DNA from: Escherichia phage JK1
Length of the DNA: 64,000 bases
Reading direction: 5' to 3' (one strand)
Sequence record: MZ436830.1
Shown here: piece after piece, positions 13,793 through 22,087 of the stretch
How positions within the stretch are numbered: the stretch's first letter is position 1
Layout of the letters: every line of letters starts with the position of its first letter
Translations under genes and position numbers: made by a program
The notes under the pieces: generated by a model
What the model was told of the DNA's origin: nothing
Databases searched by the model: none
The model's input: only the letters and a program-made list of their open reading frames with translations

Positions 13793-14887
13793 ATGGCAAT
13801 TGTTAAAGAAATAACTGCTGATTTAATTAAAAAGTCCGGTGAGAAAATTTCAGCCGGACAGAGTACTAAATCAGAAGTAGGAACTAAAACATACACAGCC
13901 CAGTTTCCAACTGGGCGTGCTAGTGGTAATGACACTACAGGGGACTTCCAGGTAACAGATCTATATAAGAATGGATTATTATTTACTGCATACAATATGT
14001 CATCTAGGGATTCTGGAAGTCTTAGATCGATGAGATCTAACTACTCTTCTTCATCTTCGAGTATTTTACGTACAGCCAGAAACACTATCAGTAATACAGT
14101 ATCAAAACTGTCAAATGGATTAATATCAGATAATAATTCAGGAACAATAAGTAAAGCCCCTGTTGCAAATATTCTTTTACCAAGATCTAAATCCGATGTT
14201 GATACATCATCACATAGATTTAATGATGTTCAAGAAAGTCTTATCAGCAGAGGCGGAGGTACTGCTACTGGTGTGCTAAGTAATATTGCTTCAACTGCAG
14301 TATTTGGAGCACTGGAAAGTATAACACAAGGTATAATGGCTGATAATAATGAACAAATATACACTACGGCTCGAAGTATGTATGGTGGTGCTGAAAATAG
14401 AACTAAAGTGTTTACTTGGGATTTGACTCCACGTTCAACAGAAGATTTAATGGCTATTATTAATATCTATCAATATTTTAACTATTTTTCTTATGGTGAA
14501 ACTGGTAAATCTCAATATGCTGCTGAAATAAAGGGGTATTTAGATGATTGGTATCGTTCTACGTTAATTGAACCTTTATCTCCGGAAGACGCAGCTAAAA
14601 ATAAAACACTATTTGAGAAAATGACATCGAGTTTAACTAACGTTCTAGTAGTTTCAAACCCGACAATTTGGATGGTGAAAAACTTTGGTGCAACATCTAA
14701 GTTTGATGGAAAAACGGAAATATTTGGCCCATGCCAAATACAAAGCATCAGATTTGATAAAACACCTAATGGTAACTTTAACGGATTAGCTATTGCTCCA
14801 AACCTCCCTAGTACATTTACTCTTGAGATTACTATGAGAGAAATTATCACGTTAAACCGTGCTTCTTTATATGCGGGGACTTTTTAA
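13793..14887 (+). CDS. 48: Baseplate tail tube cap gp48
   Basis: 364 aa; synteny. Confidence 0.85.
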   Translation: MAIVKEITADLIKKSGEKISAGQSTKSEVGTKTYTAQFPTGRASGNDTTGDFQVTDLYKNGLLFTAYNMSSRDSGSLRSMRSNYSSSSSSILRTARNTISNTVSKLSNGLISDNNSGTISKAPVANILLPRSKSDVDTSSHRFNDVQESLISRGGGTATGVLSNIASTAVFGALESITQGIMADNNEQIYTTARSMYGGAENRTKVFTWDLTPRSTEDLMAIINIYQYFNYFSYGETGKSQYAAEIKGYLDDWYRSTLIEPLSPEDAAKNKTLFEKMTSSLTNVLVVSNPTIWMVKNFGATSKFDGKTEIFGPCQIQSIRFDKTPNGNFNGLAIAPNLPSTFTLEITMREIITLNRASLYAGTF

Positions 14888-15852
14888 TGTATTCTTTAGA
14901 GGAATTTAATAATCAAGCAATAAACGCAGATTTCCAACGTAATAATATGTTTAGCTGCGTTTTTGCGACAACTCCATCAACTAAAAGCTCTTCGTTGATA
15001 AGTTCAATTAGCAACTTTTCTTATAATAACTTGGGCCTAAATTCAGATTGGTTAGGATTGACTCAAGGTGATATTAATCAGGGAATTACCACGCTAATTA
15101 CTGCTGGCACACAAAAACTGATAAGAAAATCAGGGGTTAGTAAATATCTTATTGGTGCCATGAGTCAACGTACAGTTCAAAGTTTATTAGGCTCATTTAC
15201 AGTTGGTACATATTTAATTGACTTCTTTAACATGGCATATAACTCATCTGGATTGATGATATACTCTGTAAAAATGCCAGAGAATAGATTATCCTATGAA
15301 ACTGACTGGAACTACAATTCTCCTAATATTCGCATAACCGGGAGAGAATTAGACCCTTTGGTTATTTCATTTAGAATGGATTCAGAAGCTTGTAACTATC
15401 GTGCAATGCAAGACTGGGTTAACTCCGTTCAAGACCCAGTAACTGGATTACGCGCTTTGCCACAGGATGTCGAGGCAGATATTCAGGTTAATCTTCATTC
15501 TCGTAATGGATTGCCTCATACTGCGGTGATGTTCACCGGATGCATTCCAATATCAGTGAGCGCTCCTGAGTTATCATATGATGGAGATAACCAAATAACT
15601 ACATTTGATGTTACTTTTGCGTACAGAGTGATGCAGGCTGGAGCGGTTGATAGGCAAGCTGCGCTTGAATGGCTTGAATCTGCTGCTATAAATGGTATTC
15701 AAAGCGTTCTCGGAAATAGTGGAGGTGTTACTGGACTATCTAATTCGCTTTCACGACTTAGTAGATTAGGAGGGACTGCTGGAAGCATTTCAAACATTAA
15801 TACTATGACAGGAATTGTTAATTCGCAGAGTAAAATATTAGGAGCAATATAA
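14887..15852 (+). CDS. 54: Baseplate tail tube initiator gp54
   Basis: 321 aa; ATGA-type overlap with gene 48; hairpin terminator after stop. Confidence 0.85.
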   Translation: MYSLEEFNNQAINADFQRNNMFSCVFATTPSTKSSSLISSISNFSYNNLGLNSDWLGLTQGDINQGITTLITAGTQKLIRKSGVSKYLIGAMSQRTVQSLLGSFTVGTYLIDFFNMAYNSSGLMIYSVKMPENRLSYETDWNYNSPNIRITGRELDPLVISFRMDSEACNYRAMQDWVNSVQDPVTGLRALPQDVEADIQVNLHSRNGLPHTAVMFTGCIPISVSAPELSYDGDNQITTFDVTFAYRVMQAGAVDRQAALEWLESAAINGIQSVLGNSGGVTGLSNSLSRLSRLGGTAGSISNINTMTGIVNSQSKILGAI

Positions 15853-15856
15853 CAAT

Positions 15857-15886
15857 GGGGACCTTTCGGTCCCCATATTTTTATTT
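15857..15886 (+). terminator. Intrinsic terminator after gene 54
   Basis: GGGGACCUUUCGGUCCCC hairpin followed by AUAUUUUUAUUU. Confidence 0.7.
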
Positions 15887-16171
15887 ACGGAATGAAATGA
15901 AAGCAGAAACTGAAGCAACTAAACTGTCTTCAATATAAACTTCAATTTTTACCGGAGCTTCTGACTCGAATTTACCTGTTACTACACCTTGGAAAATACT
16001 TTCAGTTTGTTCTGGCTTTGAAAAATTTTCAGAAGGAAAAATTCCGAACTTTTTATCTGTTCCAAAAATTTTGATAAATTCATCATAAACTGCTTCATTA
16101 AAAGCATTATCAGCAGGAATAACGCCTTCAACTACAAGTTCTTGACCCAAAAAGCGCAAAGAAGATTTCAT
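15881..16171 (-). CDS. Hypothetical protein (96 aa)
   Basis: ORF with GAGGAA RBS, early-type promoter at 16203-16232. Confidence 0.6.
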   Translation of the reverse strand: MKSSLRFLGQELVVEGVIPADNAFNEAVYDEFIKIFGTDKKFGIFPSENFSKPEQTESIFQGVVTGKFESEAPVKIEVYIEDSLVASVSAFISFRK

Positions 16172-16202: not shown

Positions 16203-16232
16203 ACTATAACACAACACGAGGGACTTGTAAAC
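16203..16232 (-). promoter_or_regulatory. Early promoter (GTTTAC-N18-TATAGT)
   Basis: -35 GTTTAC (16227-16232) and -10 TATAGT (16203-16208) on - strand; part of a 52-bp repeat. Confidence 0.5.
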
Positions 16233-18289
16233 TACATCTTGAACTTTTTAGACATTCCGTTGATGTTAACCAAAGAAGCCAAGATTTGAGAAACTTCGTT
16301 TTCCTCTTCTTTTGATTCTTCTACAAGGAATTGATTAAATCCAGCCATTGGACGAACTTCACCAGTTTCCATTAAATGGTCGCCATCATATACTGATTCT
16401 TCTAATTGTTCAGAAGGAGGAACGATTGTACCTTCTATTAGATACTTGTTATAAGCAGTTTCTTTCATAAAGTACGTGCTCACTTTATTAATCTTCAGTA
16501 AAATTCCACGCGGTAGAATAACTTCAGCTTCTGATGGAAATCCTGATAAATGACCTGGAACGATAACTTTGATTCGCTCAGCTCCTTTAATTACCATACC
16601 CACGCTAGTTTCAGCATCTTCATTAGCATATGTAGAATGACTACCCATATGCATCAAATCTTCTGCATCAACGGAACCTTCTCCTTCACCAGAAAATACT
16701 GCGCCGGAATCATCTAGAGCCATATAGTTTTTACCATGCTCACCGAAGATATTTGGTTTAAGCGATGTGGATACGAAGTTCTTGAAATAGAACATTTTAT
16801 TTTCAATGTTATGACGCAAAGTTTTAAAGGTAACTTCTTGCCCACGATAAAGAGTAGTTCCTGGAGGAAGAACAGAACCTTTAGCAAATGCAGAATCCAA
16901 CGTCTCGATGTGTTTAATAGCTCGTTCCATATATTCTTCACGGGTAGAATCAGGTTTACCTAAAAGGAACGAGTTCATTTCAACATATGAATCTGCACAA
17001 TAATCTTCAATTACATCAGATTCAGCTTGGGTTAATCCTTTTGGAGTTACTTCGGTGCTTGCGTATTCATATGCCTGAGCAGCAGATTCATTAATCAATT
17101 TATAAATGCCATTCATTACAAATTGAATAATAGCTGTCTTTTCATCTGGCGTAGCTTTAGAACCTTTAACCAAATCATTGATAATTTTCTTAATAACATC
17201 AAAGCTATTAGAAATATTAATGTCAGCAAGATCGCTTAAAATTTTATCAGTTTTATAATCAAAGAATTCTTTATTCTTTAAATATTCTTGAGAACCTTGA
17301 TATGTTATATCGCTCTGCAACTTGATGGATGGATCACGTAAACGTGCATGGGCTAATGCAATATGATTTCGGAAACTTTCTAGTTCATAATCGTTAGATT
17401 TAAAACGAGAAGCACTCCTCATACCACCGATAGCTCCTTTGCTGAAGTTTGAACCAATCTGAATAACGCCAGAGTTCATTGGTCCTTCTGCTTTATATAC
17501 CGGAACTTTAGATTCAAACTCTTGATATTTCTTAGCAGCGAAGCTATCACCCTGAAGTGAAGCATCAACAGTAGAATATTGAGCTTGTGCTGCTAATCGA
17601 CGACTAATTTTAGTTTTCTGAATAACAGCTTGATCCGTGCGCTTATCATTTTCTAAAGCAATAGAAGCAGCGACAGCGACAGCTTTAGGAACAGCATTAC
17701 CTGTTTTAACGTCTACATAAACATCACCAACCTTTGATTCAACTTTTGTGAATAACTCAGTTGAAATAGGAGGTACACCTGGAATGTCTTCTAAATTGGC
17801 ATTTTTACGGTAAACCATAATATATGCATATTTCTTATCATAGTCCCAGATTTCCTTTAAAAGAACATATCGACCTGCTCCTTTAGTACGTACTAAACGG
17901 TCAGCAATAACTTGCATTTGACGAGCTGCGCCATTTGTTTTACTTTTTAGTACGCGGAATAGGCATGCGTCGATTTTATACTGTTTCATTGTTTGAAGAG
18001 CAGTATCAAAAACAGCATTAATGACGCCAATTGGATTTCCACCCAAGTTTCTAAGCTTGACTAACGATAATTTCTCGTTGACACCTATCATTACGATATG
18101 CATCATTTTGTCGCCTGGCTTAACGTTTTTATTCGTATCACCGCCAGAGGTGTATGTACAAAATCTAAATCCAGGAAGAACGCTTTCTTCACCGGCTTGA
18201 ATAGCAAAAATTTGTGGTATTTTATGCTTAGGATTTAAGTTAACAACCGGCGCCGAAGCGCCGTCAAATAATTCTGTAATAAGTTCCAT
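16232..18289 (-). CDS. alt: Alt-family ADP-ribosyltransferase (685 aa)
   Basis: R-S-E ART signature in C-terminal half (LYRGQ ... FVSTSL ... EAEVILPRG); N-terminal MELITE peptide; synteny next to gene 54. Confidence 0.8.
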   Translation of the reverse strand: MELITELFDGASAPVVNLNPKHKIPQIFAIQAGEESVLPGFRFCTYTSGGDTNKNVKPGDKMMHIVMIGVNEKLSLVKLRNLGGNPIGVINAVFDTALQTMKQYKIDACLFRVLKSKTNGAARQMQVIADRLVRTKGAGRYVLLKEIWDYDKKYAYIMVYRKNANLEDIPGVPPISTELFTKVESKVGDVYVDVKTGNAVPKAVAVAASIALENDKRTDQAVIQKTKISRRLAAQAQYSTVDASLQGDSFAAKKYQEFESKVPVYKAEGPMNSGVIQIGSNFSKGAIGGMRSASRFKSNDYELESFRNHIALAHARLRDPSIKLQSDITYQGSQEYLKNKEFFDYKTDKILSDLADINISNSFDVIKKIINDLVKGSKATPDEKTAIIQFVMNGIYKLINESAAQAYEYASTEVTPKGLTQAESDVIEDYCADSYVEMNSFLLGKPDSTREEYMERAIKHIETLDSAFAKGSVLPPGTTLYRGQEVTFKTLRHNIENKMFYFKNFVSTSLKPNIFGEHGKNYMALDDSGAVFSGEGEGSVDAEDLMHMGSHSTYANEDAETSVGMVIKGAERIKVIVPGHLSGFPSEAEVILPRGILLKINKVSTYFMKETAYNKYLIEGTIVPPSEQLEESVYDGDHLMETGEVRPMAGFNQFLVEESKEEENEVSQILASLVNINGMSKKFKM

Positions 18290-18292
18290 GAT

Positions 18293-20386
18293 TTATCCTT
18301 GAACGAACTTGTAAGGCATGTTTGTAATATCTATGCAAGACGCAATAATTCCAAGAGATGATTCTACTTTCTGTTTAACGTTTGATGAAACAAATGATGC
18401 AAAGTCAACTTTGTCTTCTATTTCAATATCACCTGTCATTGCAACTACTTCGCCGGTTTCCATTAGATGGTCACCGTCATAAATTACCGATTCGGTGAGT
18501 TCTTCTGTGGTCATAACTTCAGCTTGAATAAGTTTTGTATTATTAGATGTTGTTCCGTCATTATTAGAAGCATCAGTTATTTTATTAACTTTAACCATCA
18601 ATCCGCGCGGTAGAATAACTTCAGCTTCTGTTGCTATTCCTAGACTTCCTGGATATACAACATTAACTTTATGTGCGCCGTCAATTGCCCATCCTATTTG
18701 AACTTTAACGTATTCAGGATTTTCTTTATACGCTCTTATTTCGTTTGGATTAATAGTTATTCCTTCTTCATTTTTATCAACTGTTAATTCATTGCGAGCT
18801 TCTGGTTCTAAAAGACCAATACCAGCATGTGTAATTCCAAAACGTCCAAAAATGATAGGAGTTAAAGAAGTAGATACAAAATTTCTGAAGTAGAACACTT
18901 TATTTTTAACTAACGCTTCATATATAGGAGCAGTCATACTTTGAGCACGATAAACTGTAATGCCTTCTGGTATACGGTCACCATTTTCAAAAGCTGAATC
19001 TAAGTTATTTATAGCAGATTCAATTTCTTTTTCACTCATTACATCATATCGTTCTGGATTGTAACGACCTAAAAGAAGATTATTGATGTCAGTATATCCT
19101 GAACCGCAATATTCTCTAATGCCACGCTTTTGTGATGGAGTATATTTAGAACCATCGCGGGCAATAGTAATATCAATCATTGGACCAGCACCAATTCCAG
19201 AAAAACTGTAAATCATTCGTTTGAGGAATTTAGTTTTTGCTGCGTTCCAGGAATTTTTAGTTATTTCTTCCCAGACTTCATCTGGTTGTCCTTTACGATT
19301 TTTATTATGATTAGCAAGCCATTTATCTTTATAATCTTCAAAGAATTGATTTACAGCTGCTGCGTATTTCTCTAAACATTTTATTGAAGTAGTTGGTTCA
19401 TTTTTAATTGCATTAAAAATTACTTCTTTAATTTTTTCTGAAACTTCACCGACTTGACTCATTGGAAAGAATTTATAATCATAGTGAAGTTCATCTGCCG
19501 TTCCTTCAGCAATAATTTTTGCTGCCTTTGTTTTAGAAGCTAATGAATTAATTCCAATTTTCATTTCTTCTGCTTCGGGAATTAAAGGTGCAGTAGCTGG
19601 TTTATTAAAATTAGCTGCTGTAGATTCATACTTCTGGAATAATTCACTTTCAAATCTAGAAGATTCCAATGACTGACTTTGTGCAATTGCTCTACGGGAA
19701 ATTTTAACTTTAACGATTACAGCTTGGTCAGAACGTTTATCGTTTTCTTGCGCAATAGATGCTGCAATTGCCTCATTTTTAGTTACTTGGGCTCCAGTAT
19801 CTTTATTGATATAAACATCACCAACCTTCGATTCAACCTTAGTAAAGAGTTCAGTACTAATTTCTGGAACTCCTGGAATGTCTTCTAGTGATACGTTTTT
19901 ACGATGTATAAGAATATATGCATACTTTTTATCGTAATCCCAGAGTTCCTTAAGAAGGACGTATCTGCCACCTGAACGACTACGGATAAGTCTATCAGCA
20001 ATAACTTGAATTTGTCGAGCTTGACCAGCGGTTTTAGACTTAAGAATACGAAGCATACAAGCATCAATTTTATATTGACGCATTGTTTGCATTGCAACAG
20101 TAAAAACTGAATTGATATAATTAATTGGGCTTGGACCAAGACCTTTCAATTTAGCAATTGAACCTTTAGCAGTTAATGTAAAAGGAACAATATGCATCAT
20201 TTTGTCGCCCATTTTTAAATCACGATTAGTATCACCTCCAGATGTATAGGTACATAAACGAAAGCCTGGTTGTTCAATTGCATCATCAACATGAACTGAA
20301 AAAATTTGTGGTATTTTCTTCTTTGGATTTAAGTTTGTAATCGGAAGAGTAGTATCTTCGTCAAATAATTCTGTAATGAGTTCCAT
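18293..20386 (-). CDS. Second Alt-family ADP-ribosyltransferase paralog (697 aa)
   Basis: Paralog of adjacent ORF: same N-terminal ~230 aa and same ART triad (VYRAQ ... FVSTSL ... EAEVILPRG); late promoter at 20410-20417. Confidence 0.8.
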   Translation of the reverse strand: MELITELFDEDTTLPITNLNPKKKIPQIFSVHVDDAIEQPGFRLCTYTSGGDTNRDLKMGDKMMHIVPFTLTAKGSIAKLKGLGPSPINYINSVFTVAMQTMRQYKIDACMLRILKSKTAGQARQIQVIADRLIRSRSGGRYVLLKELWDYDKKYAYILIHRKNVSLEDIPGVPEISTELFTKVESKVGDVYINKDTGAQVTKNEAIAASIAQENDKRSDQAVIVKVKISRRAIAQSQSLESSRFESELFQKYESTAANFNKPATAPLIPEAEEMKIGINSLASKTKAAKIIAEGTADELHYDYKFFPMSQVGEVSEKIKEVIFNAIKNEPTTSIKCLEKYAAAVNQFFEDYKDKWLANHNKNRKGQPDEVWEEITKNSWNAAKTKFLKRMIYSFSGIGAGPMIDITIARDGSKYTPSQKRGIREYCGSGYTDINNLLLGRYNPERYDVMSEKEIESAINNLDSAFENGDRIPEGITVYRAQSMTAPIYEALVKNKVFYFRNFVSTSLTPIIFGRFGITHAGIGLLEPEARNELTVDKNEEGITINPNEIRAYKENPEYVKVQIGWAIDGAHKVNVVYPGSLGIATEAEVILPRGLMVKVNKITDASNNDGTTSNNTKLIQAEVMTTEELTESVIYDGDHLMETGEVVAMTGDIEIEDKVDFASFVSSNVKQKVESSLGIIASCIDITNMPYKFVQG

Positions 20387-20409
20387 CATATCCTCTCTAG
20401 TGTTTATTC

Positions 20410-20417
20410 TATTTATA
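20410..20417 (-). promoter_or_regulatory. Late promoter for the upstream Alt-family gene
   Basis: TATAAATA on - strand ~20 nt upstream of ATG 20386/20389. Confidence 0.6.
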
Positions 20418-20418
20418 A

Positions 20419-20440
20419 AATTAAAGGCCCGAAGGCCTTT
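20419..20440 (-). terminator. Hairpin (possible terminator) upstream of the alt late promoter
   Basis: AAAGGCCUUCGGGCCUUU on - strand followed by AAUUUUAU. Confidence 0.4.
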
Positions 20441-20627
20441 AATAATCTATTGGTAAGAGAGTACGATATATTTCAAACTTTGGACCTTTTTCATAGGCAT
20501 CAAATGTTTCTGTGAATTTATTATAAGCATATGCATCTATAAATTCAATCATGATTTGTGATACAGAAGTAGAAACATCTCCACCTTCTTTTTGAGCCAC
20601 GACAATTGTTTCTAAGTAAGCTTTCAT
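20439..20627 (-). CDS. Hypothetical protein (62 aa)
   Basis: ORF downstream of DNA ligase gene. Confidence 0.5.
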   Translation of the reverse strand: MKAYLETIVVAQKEGGDVSTSVSQIMIEFIDAYAYNKFTETFDAYEKGPKFEIYRTLLPIDY

Positions 20628-22087
20628 AGACCAGTTACCTCATGAAAATCACCAAATACATCTTCGAATGTATTAGCTTTAGTTTTATCTTCACGCAAAC
20701 GAATCGCAATTGGAAGAAATAATTTAACGTAATCAGTGCGGCCATCGGATTTTAACCAACCGTTGCATTCGCACTCTAGAATTTTTCCAATATAATAATT
20801 TTGGTTTTCCATAATGCGAGTACGGTCAAGTTCATGTGATTTTACGCCGGCTTTATCTTTTAAGCCTGAACCGGCATTTACCTTAATTTTTCCACACTCT
20901 GACTCAAGAATAAATCCACCTGCTTTAGTAGGGTCTTTACGGTGAGGATAAATTCCTACAATTTTTAAATCAACATCAATTACTTCTTTAAATTTATAGA
21001 GATTTTTTGAACGAGCATTTTCCCATAATCCATCGATATTTTTGAGAATAATACCTTCAAGACCTTGATCAATATACTTTTTGTAAATTACCTTAGCTTC
21101 ATCTAGGTTATTTACTACTTGGTTTTCAATTAAAATTACTTTATCATAGCCTGATGTCATTTGTTCTAGTTTAGAAAAACGTACATCATACTTTAAACGA
21201 AATGCAGGAAGACCATATATTTCTACTAATGGAACATAATCCCAGACCTGAAACTTCATGCATTGTGCTTCTTTTTCGGAAATGGTTCCCTTTAAAGATT
21301 TATTAGCGATTCCATTAGAAGTAGTACGTGATTCAGCTACTTCGGCGAATTCTTTAGCTTTACTAATTTCAGGATAAGCATCAAAAAGAAAATCTAGGCC
21401 TTCTGGCTCCTTTTTAACTTGCTCATGGTATACCAATTCGCCATCAATTAACACACCTTCTGGATGAATCTGGCGGGCTTCAGCGGTCATTTTGATTAAC
21501 TCTTCCTTAAGAAGATCTAATCCTAGATATTCATTACCAGCTCGTGATAAAAGACGGACATCATCTAATTCATCACCTCTAACTTCAGCAAAACACCGAG
21601 CTCCATCTGCTTTTAATTGTGCAAAGGCTGGAAATTTGATATTCTTACTAATGCCTTTTTCATCATAAGAACTTGCGAGCATTTGAGGTTGTTCAGGAAT
21701 TAAACCTGGCCAAACTTTGTTTGCAATAGATACTGAAGCACCACATTCAAGGTCTCGCATCATCACTCGACGCAAAACTTCAACATCATCTTTTTTACCA
21801 TCGGTGATATATCCAGTTAATTCCTCAATTGCCGCATTTCCAGTCAATTTCCGAGTAGCTAACGTGAATTCAATGAAGTCAAGCATATCGGTAAGAGTCA
21901 ACATTCCAAAACTCTGGGTAGCAATACCAGGTTTAGGCCATTTCTTGATATAATACTGTAACCCACGAGAATAAGTCAGACGATATACTCGTTTAAGCAA
22001 TTCATTATCTTTATTCTTTTCAAGAATTGCTTGCTTCTGCTTAGTTGAACCAATAGATGCTATTTCGTTCAGAATTTTAAGAATCAT
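20624..22087 (-). CDS. 30: ATP-dependent DNA ligase gp30
   Basis: 487 aa; adenylation motif KADGAR; matches remembered T4 DNA ligase over full length. Confidence 0.95.
   Translation of the reverse strand: MILKILNEIASIGSTKQKQAILEKNKDNELLKRVYRLTYSRGLQYYIKKWPKPGIATQSFGMLTLTDMLDFIEFTLATRKLTGNAAIEELTGYITDGKKDDVEVLRRVMMRDLECGASVSIANKVWPGLIPEQPQMLASSYDEKGISKNIKFPAFAQLKADGARCFAEVRGDELDDVRLLSRAGNEYLGLDLLKEELIKMTAEARQIHPEGVLIDGELVYHEQVKKEPEGLDFLFDAYPEISKAKEFAEVAESRTTSNGIANKSLKGTISEKEAQCMKFQVWDYVPLVEIYGLPAFRLKYDVRFSKLEQMTSGYDKVILIENQVVNNLDEAKVIYKKYIDQGLEGIILKNIDGLWENARSKNLYKFKEVIDVDLKIVGIYPHRKDPTKAGGFILESECGKIKVNAGSGLKDKAGVKSHELDRTRIMENQNYYIGKILECECNGWLKSDGRTDYVKLFLPIAIRLREDKTKANTFEDVFGDFHEVTGL

Follow-up and report, generated by a model that had tools for sequence, protein, structure and literature searches.

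The alt locus of Escherichia phage JK1: two tandem Alt-family ADP-ribosyltransferase genes and what the second may contribute

Work on phage ADP-ribosylation rests almost wholly on T4 and its transferases Alt, ModA, and ModB, and T4 is atypical at the alt locus. The stretch considered here, 64,000 nucleotides of Escherichia phage JK1 (MZ436830.1; hereafter the window, to which all coordinates refer), belongs to a T-even phage of the genus Tequatrovirus and carries at this locus two adjacent full-length genes for Alt-family ADP-ribosyltransferases (ARTs), alt and alt.-2. The arrangement raises the question of what the second gene contributes: a further enzyme that enters the host with targets of its own, a spare copy of Alt, a late protein that acts in the producing cell, or a relic. 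We consider it probable that the locus represents a late alt operon like that of T2, T6, and RB14, in which ancient tandem paralogues encode two co-packaged and co-injected arginine-specific transferases with different substrates. Of approximately 540 Tequatrovirus records, approximately 400 contain alt.-2 at 95-99% DNA identity. The two genes, both recognized by open reading frame (ORF), PF03496, and phrog_802, are:

18293-20386, minus strand: alt, the upstream copy, 697 amino acids (aa) plus stop, T2/T6/RB14-type allele
16232-18289, minus strand: alt.-2, the full-length downstream copy, 685 aa plus stop

A first-pass annotation of this DNA had taken these ORFs for tandem paralogues with conserved ends and a divergent middle, and comparison of the proteins upholds both points. 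They are 41% identical over their full length (BLASTP, E 2e-163), and a three-way alignment with T4 Alt places this identity mainly at the ends: 55-75% in the first ~240 columns, 12-20% in columns 241-440, and ~40-45% in the ART domain, with a shared tail motif. Within the ART domain, the stretch between the Ser-Thr-Ser (STS) and Glu-x-Glu (ExE) motifs is only 7% identical, contains indels, and is poorly modeled in alt. From N to C terminus, both proteins would share one layout, consisting of a 6-residue propeptide ending in ITE, a basic domain of ~230 residues, a helical middle of ~175 residues, an ART of the C3/VIP2 type, an L-x-E site, and an acidic propeptide of 54-65 residues. The segments, delimited in part with AlphaFold2 (AF2) models whose confidence is expressed as the predicted local distance difference test (pLDDT) and with isoelectric points (pI), are:

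20369-20386, minus strand: alt, N-terminal propeptide MELITE, with the gp21 site ITE-6
19673-20368, minus strand: alt, basic N-terminal alpha/beta domain, residues 7-238, pI 9.5 (AF2 model)
19142-19672, minus strand: alt, all-helical hypervariable middle, residues 239-415 (AF2 predicts helices only), 12-20% identical to alt.-2 and 14-36% to T4 Alt
18491-19141, minus strand: alt, ART domain, residues 416-632, with R480, S505-T-S507, and E587-A-E589 (Pfam, invariant residues, Foldseek)
18296-18490, minus strand: alt, predicted C-terminal propeptide, residues 633-697 after LTE-632, containing YDGDHLMETGEV (aligns with LTE-619 of T4 Alt; low AF2 confidence)
18272-18289, minus strand: alt.-2, N-terminal propeptide MELITE
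17579-18271, minus strand: alt.-2, basic N-terminal alpha/beta domain, residues 7-237, pI 9.7
17045-17578, minus strand: alt.-2, all-helical middle, residues 238-415 (AF2 pLDDT 80-90, eight helices)
16397-17044, minus strand: alt.-2, ART domain, residues 416-631, with R482, S507-T-S509, and E587-A-E589
16235-16396, minus strand: alt.-2, predicted C-terminal propeptide, residues 632-685 after LEE-631 (E631 invariant, L-x-E pattern, low AF2 confidence)

The N-terminal domains of both proteins are thus basic (pI 9.5-9.7) and the C-terminal tails acidic (pI 4.2-4.6). That of alt is ~100% identical to T4 Alt and 55-75% to alt.-2, and homologues carry PF26846 (Tevenvirinae_ADPRT), which is precomputed for the 99%-identical protein cluster P0001 and for P0121; a Pfam scan of the window proteins themselves returned no PF26846. 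The mean pLDDT of the full models is 75 for alt.-2 and 70 for alt.

Both proteins have the ART fold of the R-S-E clade. PF03496 (ADPrib_exo_Tox) matches above its cut-off of 23.4 bits, at 129.9 bits for alt (9.7e-38) and 71.9 bits for alt.-2 (5.8e-20), and phrog_802, "Alt-like RNA polymerase ADP-ribosyltransferase," aligns from end to end, over residues 1-685 of alt.-2 (2.5e-256) and 1-696 of alt (3.7e-273); an NCBIfam model was found for neither protein. Arg482, Gln484, Ser507, Ser509, Glu587, and Glu589, followed by ILPRG (alt.-2 numbering), are invariant in 24 diverse members of the family, and in the family profile YRG falls on the YRG of C3cer, and EAE on QYE of C3cer and EYE of BECa. This profile was required, as a single-sequence phmmer search of alt.-2 against the sequences of the Protein Data Bank gave no match. 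For both AF2 models, the best Foldseek match is the arginine transferase Vis, followed by C3, VIP2, iota, and CDTa. The motifs quoted in the first-pass annotation (YRAQ and YRGQ, FVSTSL, EAEVILPRG, and YDGDHLMETGEV) are all present, and its R-S-E triad holds in both copies; the possibility it had raised against itself, that one copy would lack catalytic residues on proper alignment, did not materialize, since both retain the complete Arg, Ser-Thr-Ser, and Glu-x-Glu set. An ExE motif goes with arginine as the acceptor, as opposed to the QxE of the asparagine-specific C3 enzymes. The ExE of alt and alt.-2 therefore predicts arginine as the acceptor for both.

The middle segments differ far more and are hypervariable throughout the family. 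Profile-profile comparison of alt-type and alt.-2-type middles detected no homology (probability 0.45%, E 0.13), and this region is thinly populated in database searches as well: 112 relatives were found among 1.84 billion representative proteins, and the 82 relatives of at least 550 aa aligned to the N-terminal domain in 57 cases and gave ~83 aligned stretches on the catalytic domain and ~25 on residues 260-335. A second large protein search, this time profile-based, recovered a set of 258 proteins identical to that of the first search and deepened the sampling no further. Among 61 proteins that have both end domains, the middles are 117-193 aa long (median 170) and fall into 42 sequence clusters. 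In the AF2 models, both built from alignments that mix alt and alt.-2 types, the two middles are all-helical, each with ~8 helices that are similarly placed and with one long helix running into the catalytic domain. Because the number and positions of the helices are alike in both models, the middles may represent one very fast-evolving fold and not unrelated inserts. The middle and the STS-ExE insert are the likeliest candidates for choosing substrates, and for this reason alt and alt.-2 probably differ in their sets of targets.

Selection and divergence show that both genes are in use and have been separate for a long time. Among the window phage, RB14, T2, and T6, the ratio of nonsynonymous to synonymous substitution rates (dN/dS) lies between 0.02 and 0.05 in alt.-2 and between 0.02 and 0.08 in alt, and both ORFs are uninterrupted in all four genomes; both genes are functional and under strong purifying selection. 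Between alt and alt.-2, the synonymous divergence (dS) is saturated, at 2.05 in the N-terminal domain and above 1 in every other segment. Recent gene conversion was considered as the source of the conserved N-terminal domain and is ruled out by this dS of 2.05 and by a nucleotide identity of 66% there; with dS saturated, the likeness of the N-terminal domains reflects constraint at the protein level. The same tandem pair, encoding 697 and 694 aa, occurs in a diverged T4-like contig (L006 2242-6423; Logan SRR23924977_2808), in which the middle and catalytic domain of the downstream copy share 60-70% identity with alt.-2, as against only 33% identity with alt for the middle of the upstream copy. 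The contig and the dS values above 1 throughout together indicate an old duplication. The Alt of phage JS10 is closer to alt.-2 than to alt, both in the middle (47% versus no detectable match) and in the catalytic domain (52% versus 34%), and with the L006 contig this makes the alt.-2 lineage the more conservative one. In L006, the interval from the ligase gene to the upstream copy contains no called alt.1.

The pair is already known from the annotations of hundreds of genomes in the databases. As a whole, the two-gene region has matches in 539 phage records, the best full-coverage match being 98.3% identical; the 3' 1.7 kb of alt.-2 recurs in 401 records, all within 90-99% DNA identity and 393 within 95-99%. 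Full-length alt and alt.-2 are present together in T2, T6, RB14, RB32, and RB51, with the same lengths of 2094 and 2058 nucleotides in T2, T6, and RB14. The gene is named alt.-2 in RB14, RB32, and RB51 and is a "hypothetical protein" in T2 (BBF63359) and T6 (BBF63615); the downstream copy of the window is the orthologue of all of these, at the same position and with the same 2058 nucleotides, and differs in nothing material (96-97% nucleotide identity, 5 to 9 nonsynonymous nucleotide changes). In many genomes RefSeq labels both genes "Alt-like RNA polymerase ADP-ribosyltransferase," and the 90%-identity protein cluster that contains alt.-2 has 772 member sequences. Paralogues beside alt have been described in T4-like phages, with alt.-1 and alt.-2 of T4 linked to alt (Nolan et al., 2006; PMC1524935). 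A literature search covering alt.-2, "Alt-like," Tequatrovirus ARTs, and virion proteomics found no paper that characterizes full-length alt.-2. The first-pass annotation had left it undecided whether reference T-even genomes carry both copies and had conceded that a near-identical, annotated, and well-described pair in all of them would undo its interest; this is so in most reference genomes as regards presence, and it fails for T4, which has alt and a broken remnant, and for the description, as no experimental account of alt.-2 was found.

The T4 remnant can be traced in detail. The T4 alignment to the window ends at 17942 and resumes from 16251, at two copies of a short direct repeat:

17942-17950, minus strand: left 9-bp repeat CTAAAAAGT, 5' endpoint of the T4 deletion
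16243-16251, minus strand: right 9-bp repeat CTAAAAAGT, 3' endpoint of the T4 deletion

T4 has thus undergone a 1,699-bp out-of-frame deletion between these repeats, with one copy retained and codons ~117-680 lost. What is left, the small genes alt.-1 (61 aa; phrog_23015) and alt.-2 (67 aa; phrog_15247), corresponds to the 5' 116 codons of full-length alt.-2, split by a 1-nucleotide deletion in an A-run; the two products share 95-96% identity with the downstream copy, over its residues 1-56 and 62-116, and only ~60% with the upstream copy. The GenBank note traces T4 alt.-1 and alt.-2 to the beginning of alt, duplicated long ago; comparison with the full-length genes shows them instead to be what is left of a complete paralogue. 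A junction of the T4 type is present in 91 phage records (~17%), which include the natural isolates HY03, SG1, and vB_EcoM_112, so it is a circulating allele and not a laboratory artefact. That T4 keeps only this broken remnant is probably why the second enzyme has gone unstudied. Approximately three-quarters of the sequenced relatives, T2 and T6 among them, have an intact gene for a second enzyme of the Alt type, and this gene is strongly selected.

Several other records touch on the distribution of the family. In Shigella phage PSD9 (MZ561532.1; H105, H171), three separate places match a query made of the alt.-2 middle and catalytic domain, and an alt-like cassette is present at 81% DNA identity; this phage may carry three Alt-family genes. 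At the end of a record of Staphylococcus phage SAJK-IND (MG010123.1, 32039-32170; H210), 44 residues are 97.7% identical to alt.-2, which looks like contamination or misassembly. In the T4-like Acinetobacter phages ZZ1 and Henu6 (BFVD I3WW50 and A0A410T5F4), a "split RNA polymerase ADP-ribosylase" is annotated, with Alt-family parts as separate genes.

These data bear directly on the idea that alt.-2 is redundant, a backup or an extra dose of Alt that is injected with it and acts on essentially the same host proteins, chiefly the alpha subunit of RNA polymerase. The two proteins do have architecture, catalytic motif, and ExE signature in common, their middles are alike in predicted helix pattern, and T4 and 90 other records manage without the gene. 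However, a purely redundant copy would be unlikely to stay intact in ~400 records, dS exceeds 1 while both paralogues remain under strong purifying selection, and the segments that would set specificity have diverged beyond profile-level homology in the middle and to 7% identity with indels in the STS-ExE stretch. We therefore regard redundancy as unlikely, and favor two enzymes with different substrates.

For alt.-2 to act in the way proposed, it would have to be packaged and processed, and here the T4 protein provides the precedent. In T4 Alt, the prohead protease gp21 removes 6 residues at ITE-6 and 63 residues at LTE-619, yielding a mature protein of 68.2 kDa as determined by mass spectrometry (PMC5694885); ~40 copies reside in the prohead core (PMC9958956) and are ejected into the host (PMC9026906). 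Both window proteins begin with MELITE, in agreement with the gp21-type N-terminal peptide noticed at the outset, and the position aligned with T4 LTE-619 is LTE-632 in alt and LEE-631 in alt.-2. The glutamate before the C-terminal cleavage point (P1) is invariant in the family, the sites themselves having been identified at the sequence level, and YDGDHLMETGEV, common to both tails, lies just past the predicted cleavage site, within the propeptide that would be removed. The conserved ends are most likely delivery (packaging) and processing modules, in which case alt.-2 would be packaged and trimmed like Alt, and the predicted mature forms are residues 7-632 of alt (70.1 kDa) and 7-631 of alt.-2 (69.2 kDa).

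Ahead of the upstream copy lie the following elements:

20410-20417, minus strand: T4-type late promoter motif TATAAATA, an exact match 21 nucleotides upstream of the alt start at 20386
20423-20440, minus strand: G+C-rich hairpin AAAGGCCTTCGGGCCTTT followed by AATTTT, just after alt.1 (read from the sequence)

The exact late promoter motif claimed in the first-pass annotation is therefore in place, and the same arrangement of TATAAATA and hairpin stands upstream of alt in T4 and T2, with the hairpin AAAGGCCTTCGGGCCTTT itself identical in both. The hairpin is likely a terminator that parts gene 30 and alt.1 from the late alt transcript; a scan with a terminator consensus gave no flag at 20423-20440. 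The alt stop codon and the alt.-2 ATG are separated by 3 nucleotides, with AAGGA just upstream of this ATG, a spacing that fits co-transcription and coupled translation of the two genes. A second exact TATAAATA occurs within alt, at 19006-19013 (minus strand), ~720 nucleotides upstream of the alt.-2 start; it may serve alt.-2 as an internal late promoter or may be there by chance.

By analogy with T4, then, the promoter at 20417-20410 would transcribe alt and alt.-2 together, translation of alt.-2 would be coupled to that of alt, and both proteins would enter the prohead core, where gp21 would trim both ends. The mature enzymes would then be injected with the DNA and would ADP-ribosylate arginines of host proteins, using NAD+. 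Were alt.-2 instead made late and not injected, acting in the producing cell, for instance on proteins of the phage or host late in infection, or as a structural or scaffolding accessory, its probable co-transcription from a late promoter would agree with this, and the literature search found no virion proteomics for alt.-2. However, both gp21 sites stand at positions matching those cut in T4 Alt, and the N-terminal domain and C-terminal propeptide that alt.-2 has in common with its packaged paralogue have no obvious use outside the head, which makes this alternative quite improbable. The reading of alt.-2 as a duplicate in decay, or as a pseudo-enzyme that has lost catalysis, to which its deleted and frameshifted version in T4 and 90 other records might point, is hardly credible, being contradicted by the selection data and the invariant catalytic residues.

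Several points weigh against two co-injected transferases with different substrates. The similar helix patterns of the AF2 models mean that the middles could be one drifted fold and not different recognition modules. The 91 records with the deletion show that alt.-2 is dispensable in at least some settings. The motif TATAAATA is not enriched across the window (12 found, 8.85 expected), and because it occurs at chance frequency, its promoter function at 20410-20417 is inferred from position and conservation. L-x-E tripeptides are likewise frequent, with 11 in alt and 7 in alt.-2, so that the motif alone is no proof of cleavage. Finally, a search of the accessible literature found neither virion proteomics nor any experiment on alt.-2, and its packaging, cleavage, injection, and activity rest on analogy with T4 Alt. 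Nevertheless, alt.-2 carries all the sequence features expected of a packaged, processed, and injected arginine transferase. If it is injected with targets of its own, host modification in the first minute of T-even infection would be more extensive than the T4 model implies.

The upstream gene is itself a mosaic. The alt protein is 70.6% identical to T4 Alt overall, and nucleotide identity by 20-codon blocks separates three regions with sharp edges: nearly all blocks of codons 1-240 and 619-697 are at 92-100% (the exception being codons 639-658, at 78%), and codons 241-618 are at 27-80%. This differing segment is:

18533-19666, minus strand: central alt cassette unlike T4 alt, codons 241-618

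The window-type cassette is found in ~340 phage records and the T4-type in 175, so the T4 cassette is the rarer of the two main types, and approximately two-thirds of the sequenced relatives carry an alt cassette unlike that of T4. Either type can adjoin a full alt.-2 (e.g., in Sf21, APTC-EC-2A, and PYPS2T). Counting that of alt.-2, the genus thus circulates at least three middle-plus-catalytic cassettes on common delivery modules. Four metagenomic proteins (P0003-P0006) combine the alt.-2 middle and catalytic domain (99-100% identical) with N-terminal domains ranging from alt.-2-like to alt-like; in P0006 this domain is 98% alt-like, and the gene immediately follows alt.1 on a contig that stops just beyond it (L005 5001-7061; Logan contig SRR19633722_48321). 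Such hybrids could be real fusions, produced by unequal recombination between the tandem paralogues, or assembly chimeras.

A broader interpretation, which we regard as possible and advance tentatively, is that alt is a polymorphic injected-effector locus in which constant delivery modules, namely the N-terminal domain and the two propeptides cut off by gp21, carry middle-plus-ART cassettes exchanged through recombination, with full-length alt.-2 as a second co-injected arginine transferase whose host targets are unlike those of Alt; these might include defense or toxin proteins instead of RNA polymerase. If this is true, the biochemistry of T4 Alt would cover a single effector specificity where the genus has three or more, and the function of alt.-2 would have been missed because T4 deleted the gene. 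In its manner of working the locus resembles polymorphic toxin and effector loci, which join a constant delivery module to a variable toxin module, by its constant ends around a variable central cassette, its sharp identity edges, and the several cassettes per genus. It differs in that all cassettes seen here are of the same class (ART), with no unrelated toxin domains among them, and in that neither immunity genes nor spare cassettes were seen, and we do not claim membership among such loci.

Comparison with T4 Alt itself (gpAlt, NP_049811) shows both continuity and change. The window alt occupies the same locus, in the same context of late promoter and terminator, and shares the gp21 sites and the R-S-ExE set; identity to T4 Alt is ~100% over the first 240 residues and 88-100% in the C-terminal tail. 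However, the catalytic context is YRAQ and TEAEV in the window alt, as against YRSQ and NEMEV in T4, and codons 241-618, that is, the helical middle and most of the ART, belong to the other cassette. In accounts citing Goff (1974) and Depping (2005), T4 Alt ADP-ribosylates the alpha subunit of E. coli RNA polymerase; as the central cassette differs, lists of T4 Alt targets may not transfer to the window alt. The C3-like and VIP2/iota-like R-S-E toxins (Vis, C3bot, Certhrax, CDTa, and iota Ia; PF03496) differ in delivery, as they use secretion or a binary-toxin pore and the Alt family uses the phage head, and also in architecture, the phage proteins adding an N-terminal domain, a helical middle, and two propeptides removed by protease.

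The surroundings of the pair are those of the T4 alt locus, with the gene order ligase, alt.1, alt, alt.-2, alt.-3, gp54:

20624-22087, minus strand: DNA ligase gp30
20439-20627, minus strand: alt.1 (62 aa)
15881-16171, minus strand: alt.-3 (DUF5498, phrog_1739, 96 aa)
14887-15852, plus strand: gp54 (ORF and Pfam)
13793-14887, plus strand: gp48 (ORF and Pfam)

The pair thus stands between gene 30 and alt.1 on one side and alt.-3 and gene 54 on the other, on the strand opposite the baseplate genes, which is the position of the T-even Alt family. The upstream copy has two possible starts, the first ATG (20389) giving 698 aa and the second (20386) giving the 697 aa that begin with MELITE; the second is used in the annotations of alt in RB14 and T2, in T6, and for the 682-aa alt of T4, and the start context ATGATGGAA is identical in T4, T2, and RB14.

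Among the neighbors, alt.1 is assigned by Pfam to PF24647, "Phage blade protein" (7.5e-29). A sigma-70-like promoter in the spacer that follows alt.-2 precedes alt.-3 at 16231-16203 (minus strand), with TTTACA, a 17-nucleotide spacer, TATAGT, and TG before the -10 element, and with a promoter of its own alt.-3 looks like a separate early gene. Mutants of T4 with a C-terminal extension of Alt.-3 escape the CmdTAC defense system (PMC11618068). Between the converging gp54 and alt.-3, a G+C-rich hairpin with a 9-bp stem (15855-15876) is terminator-like on both strands.

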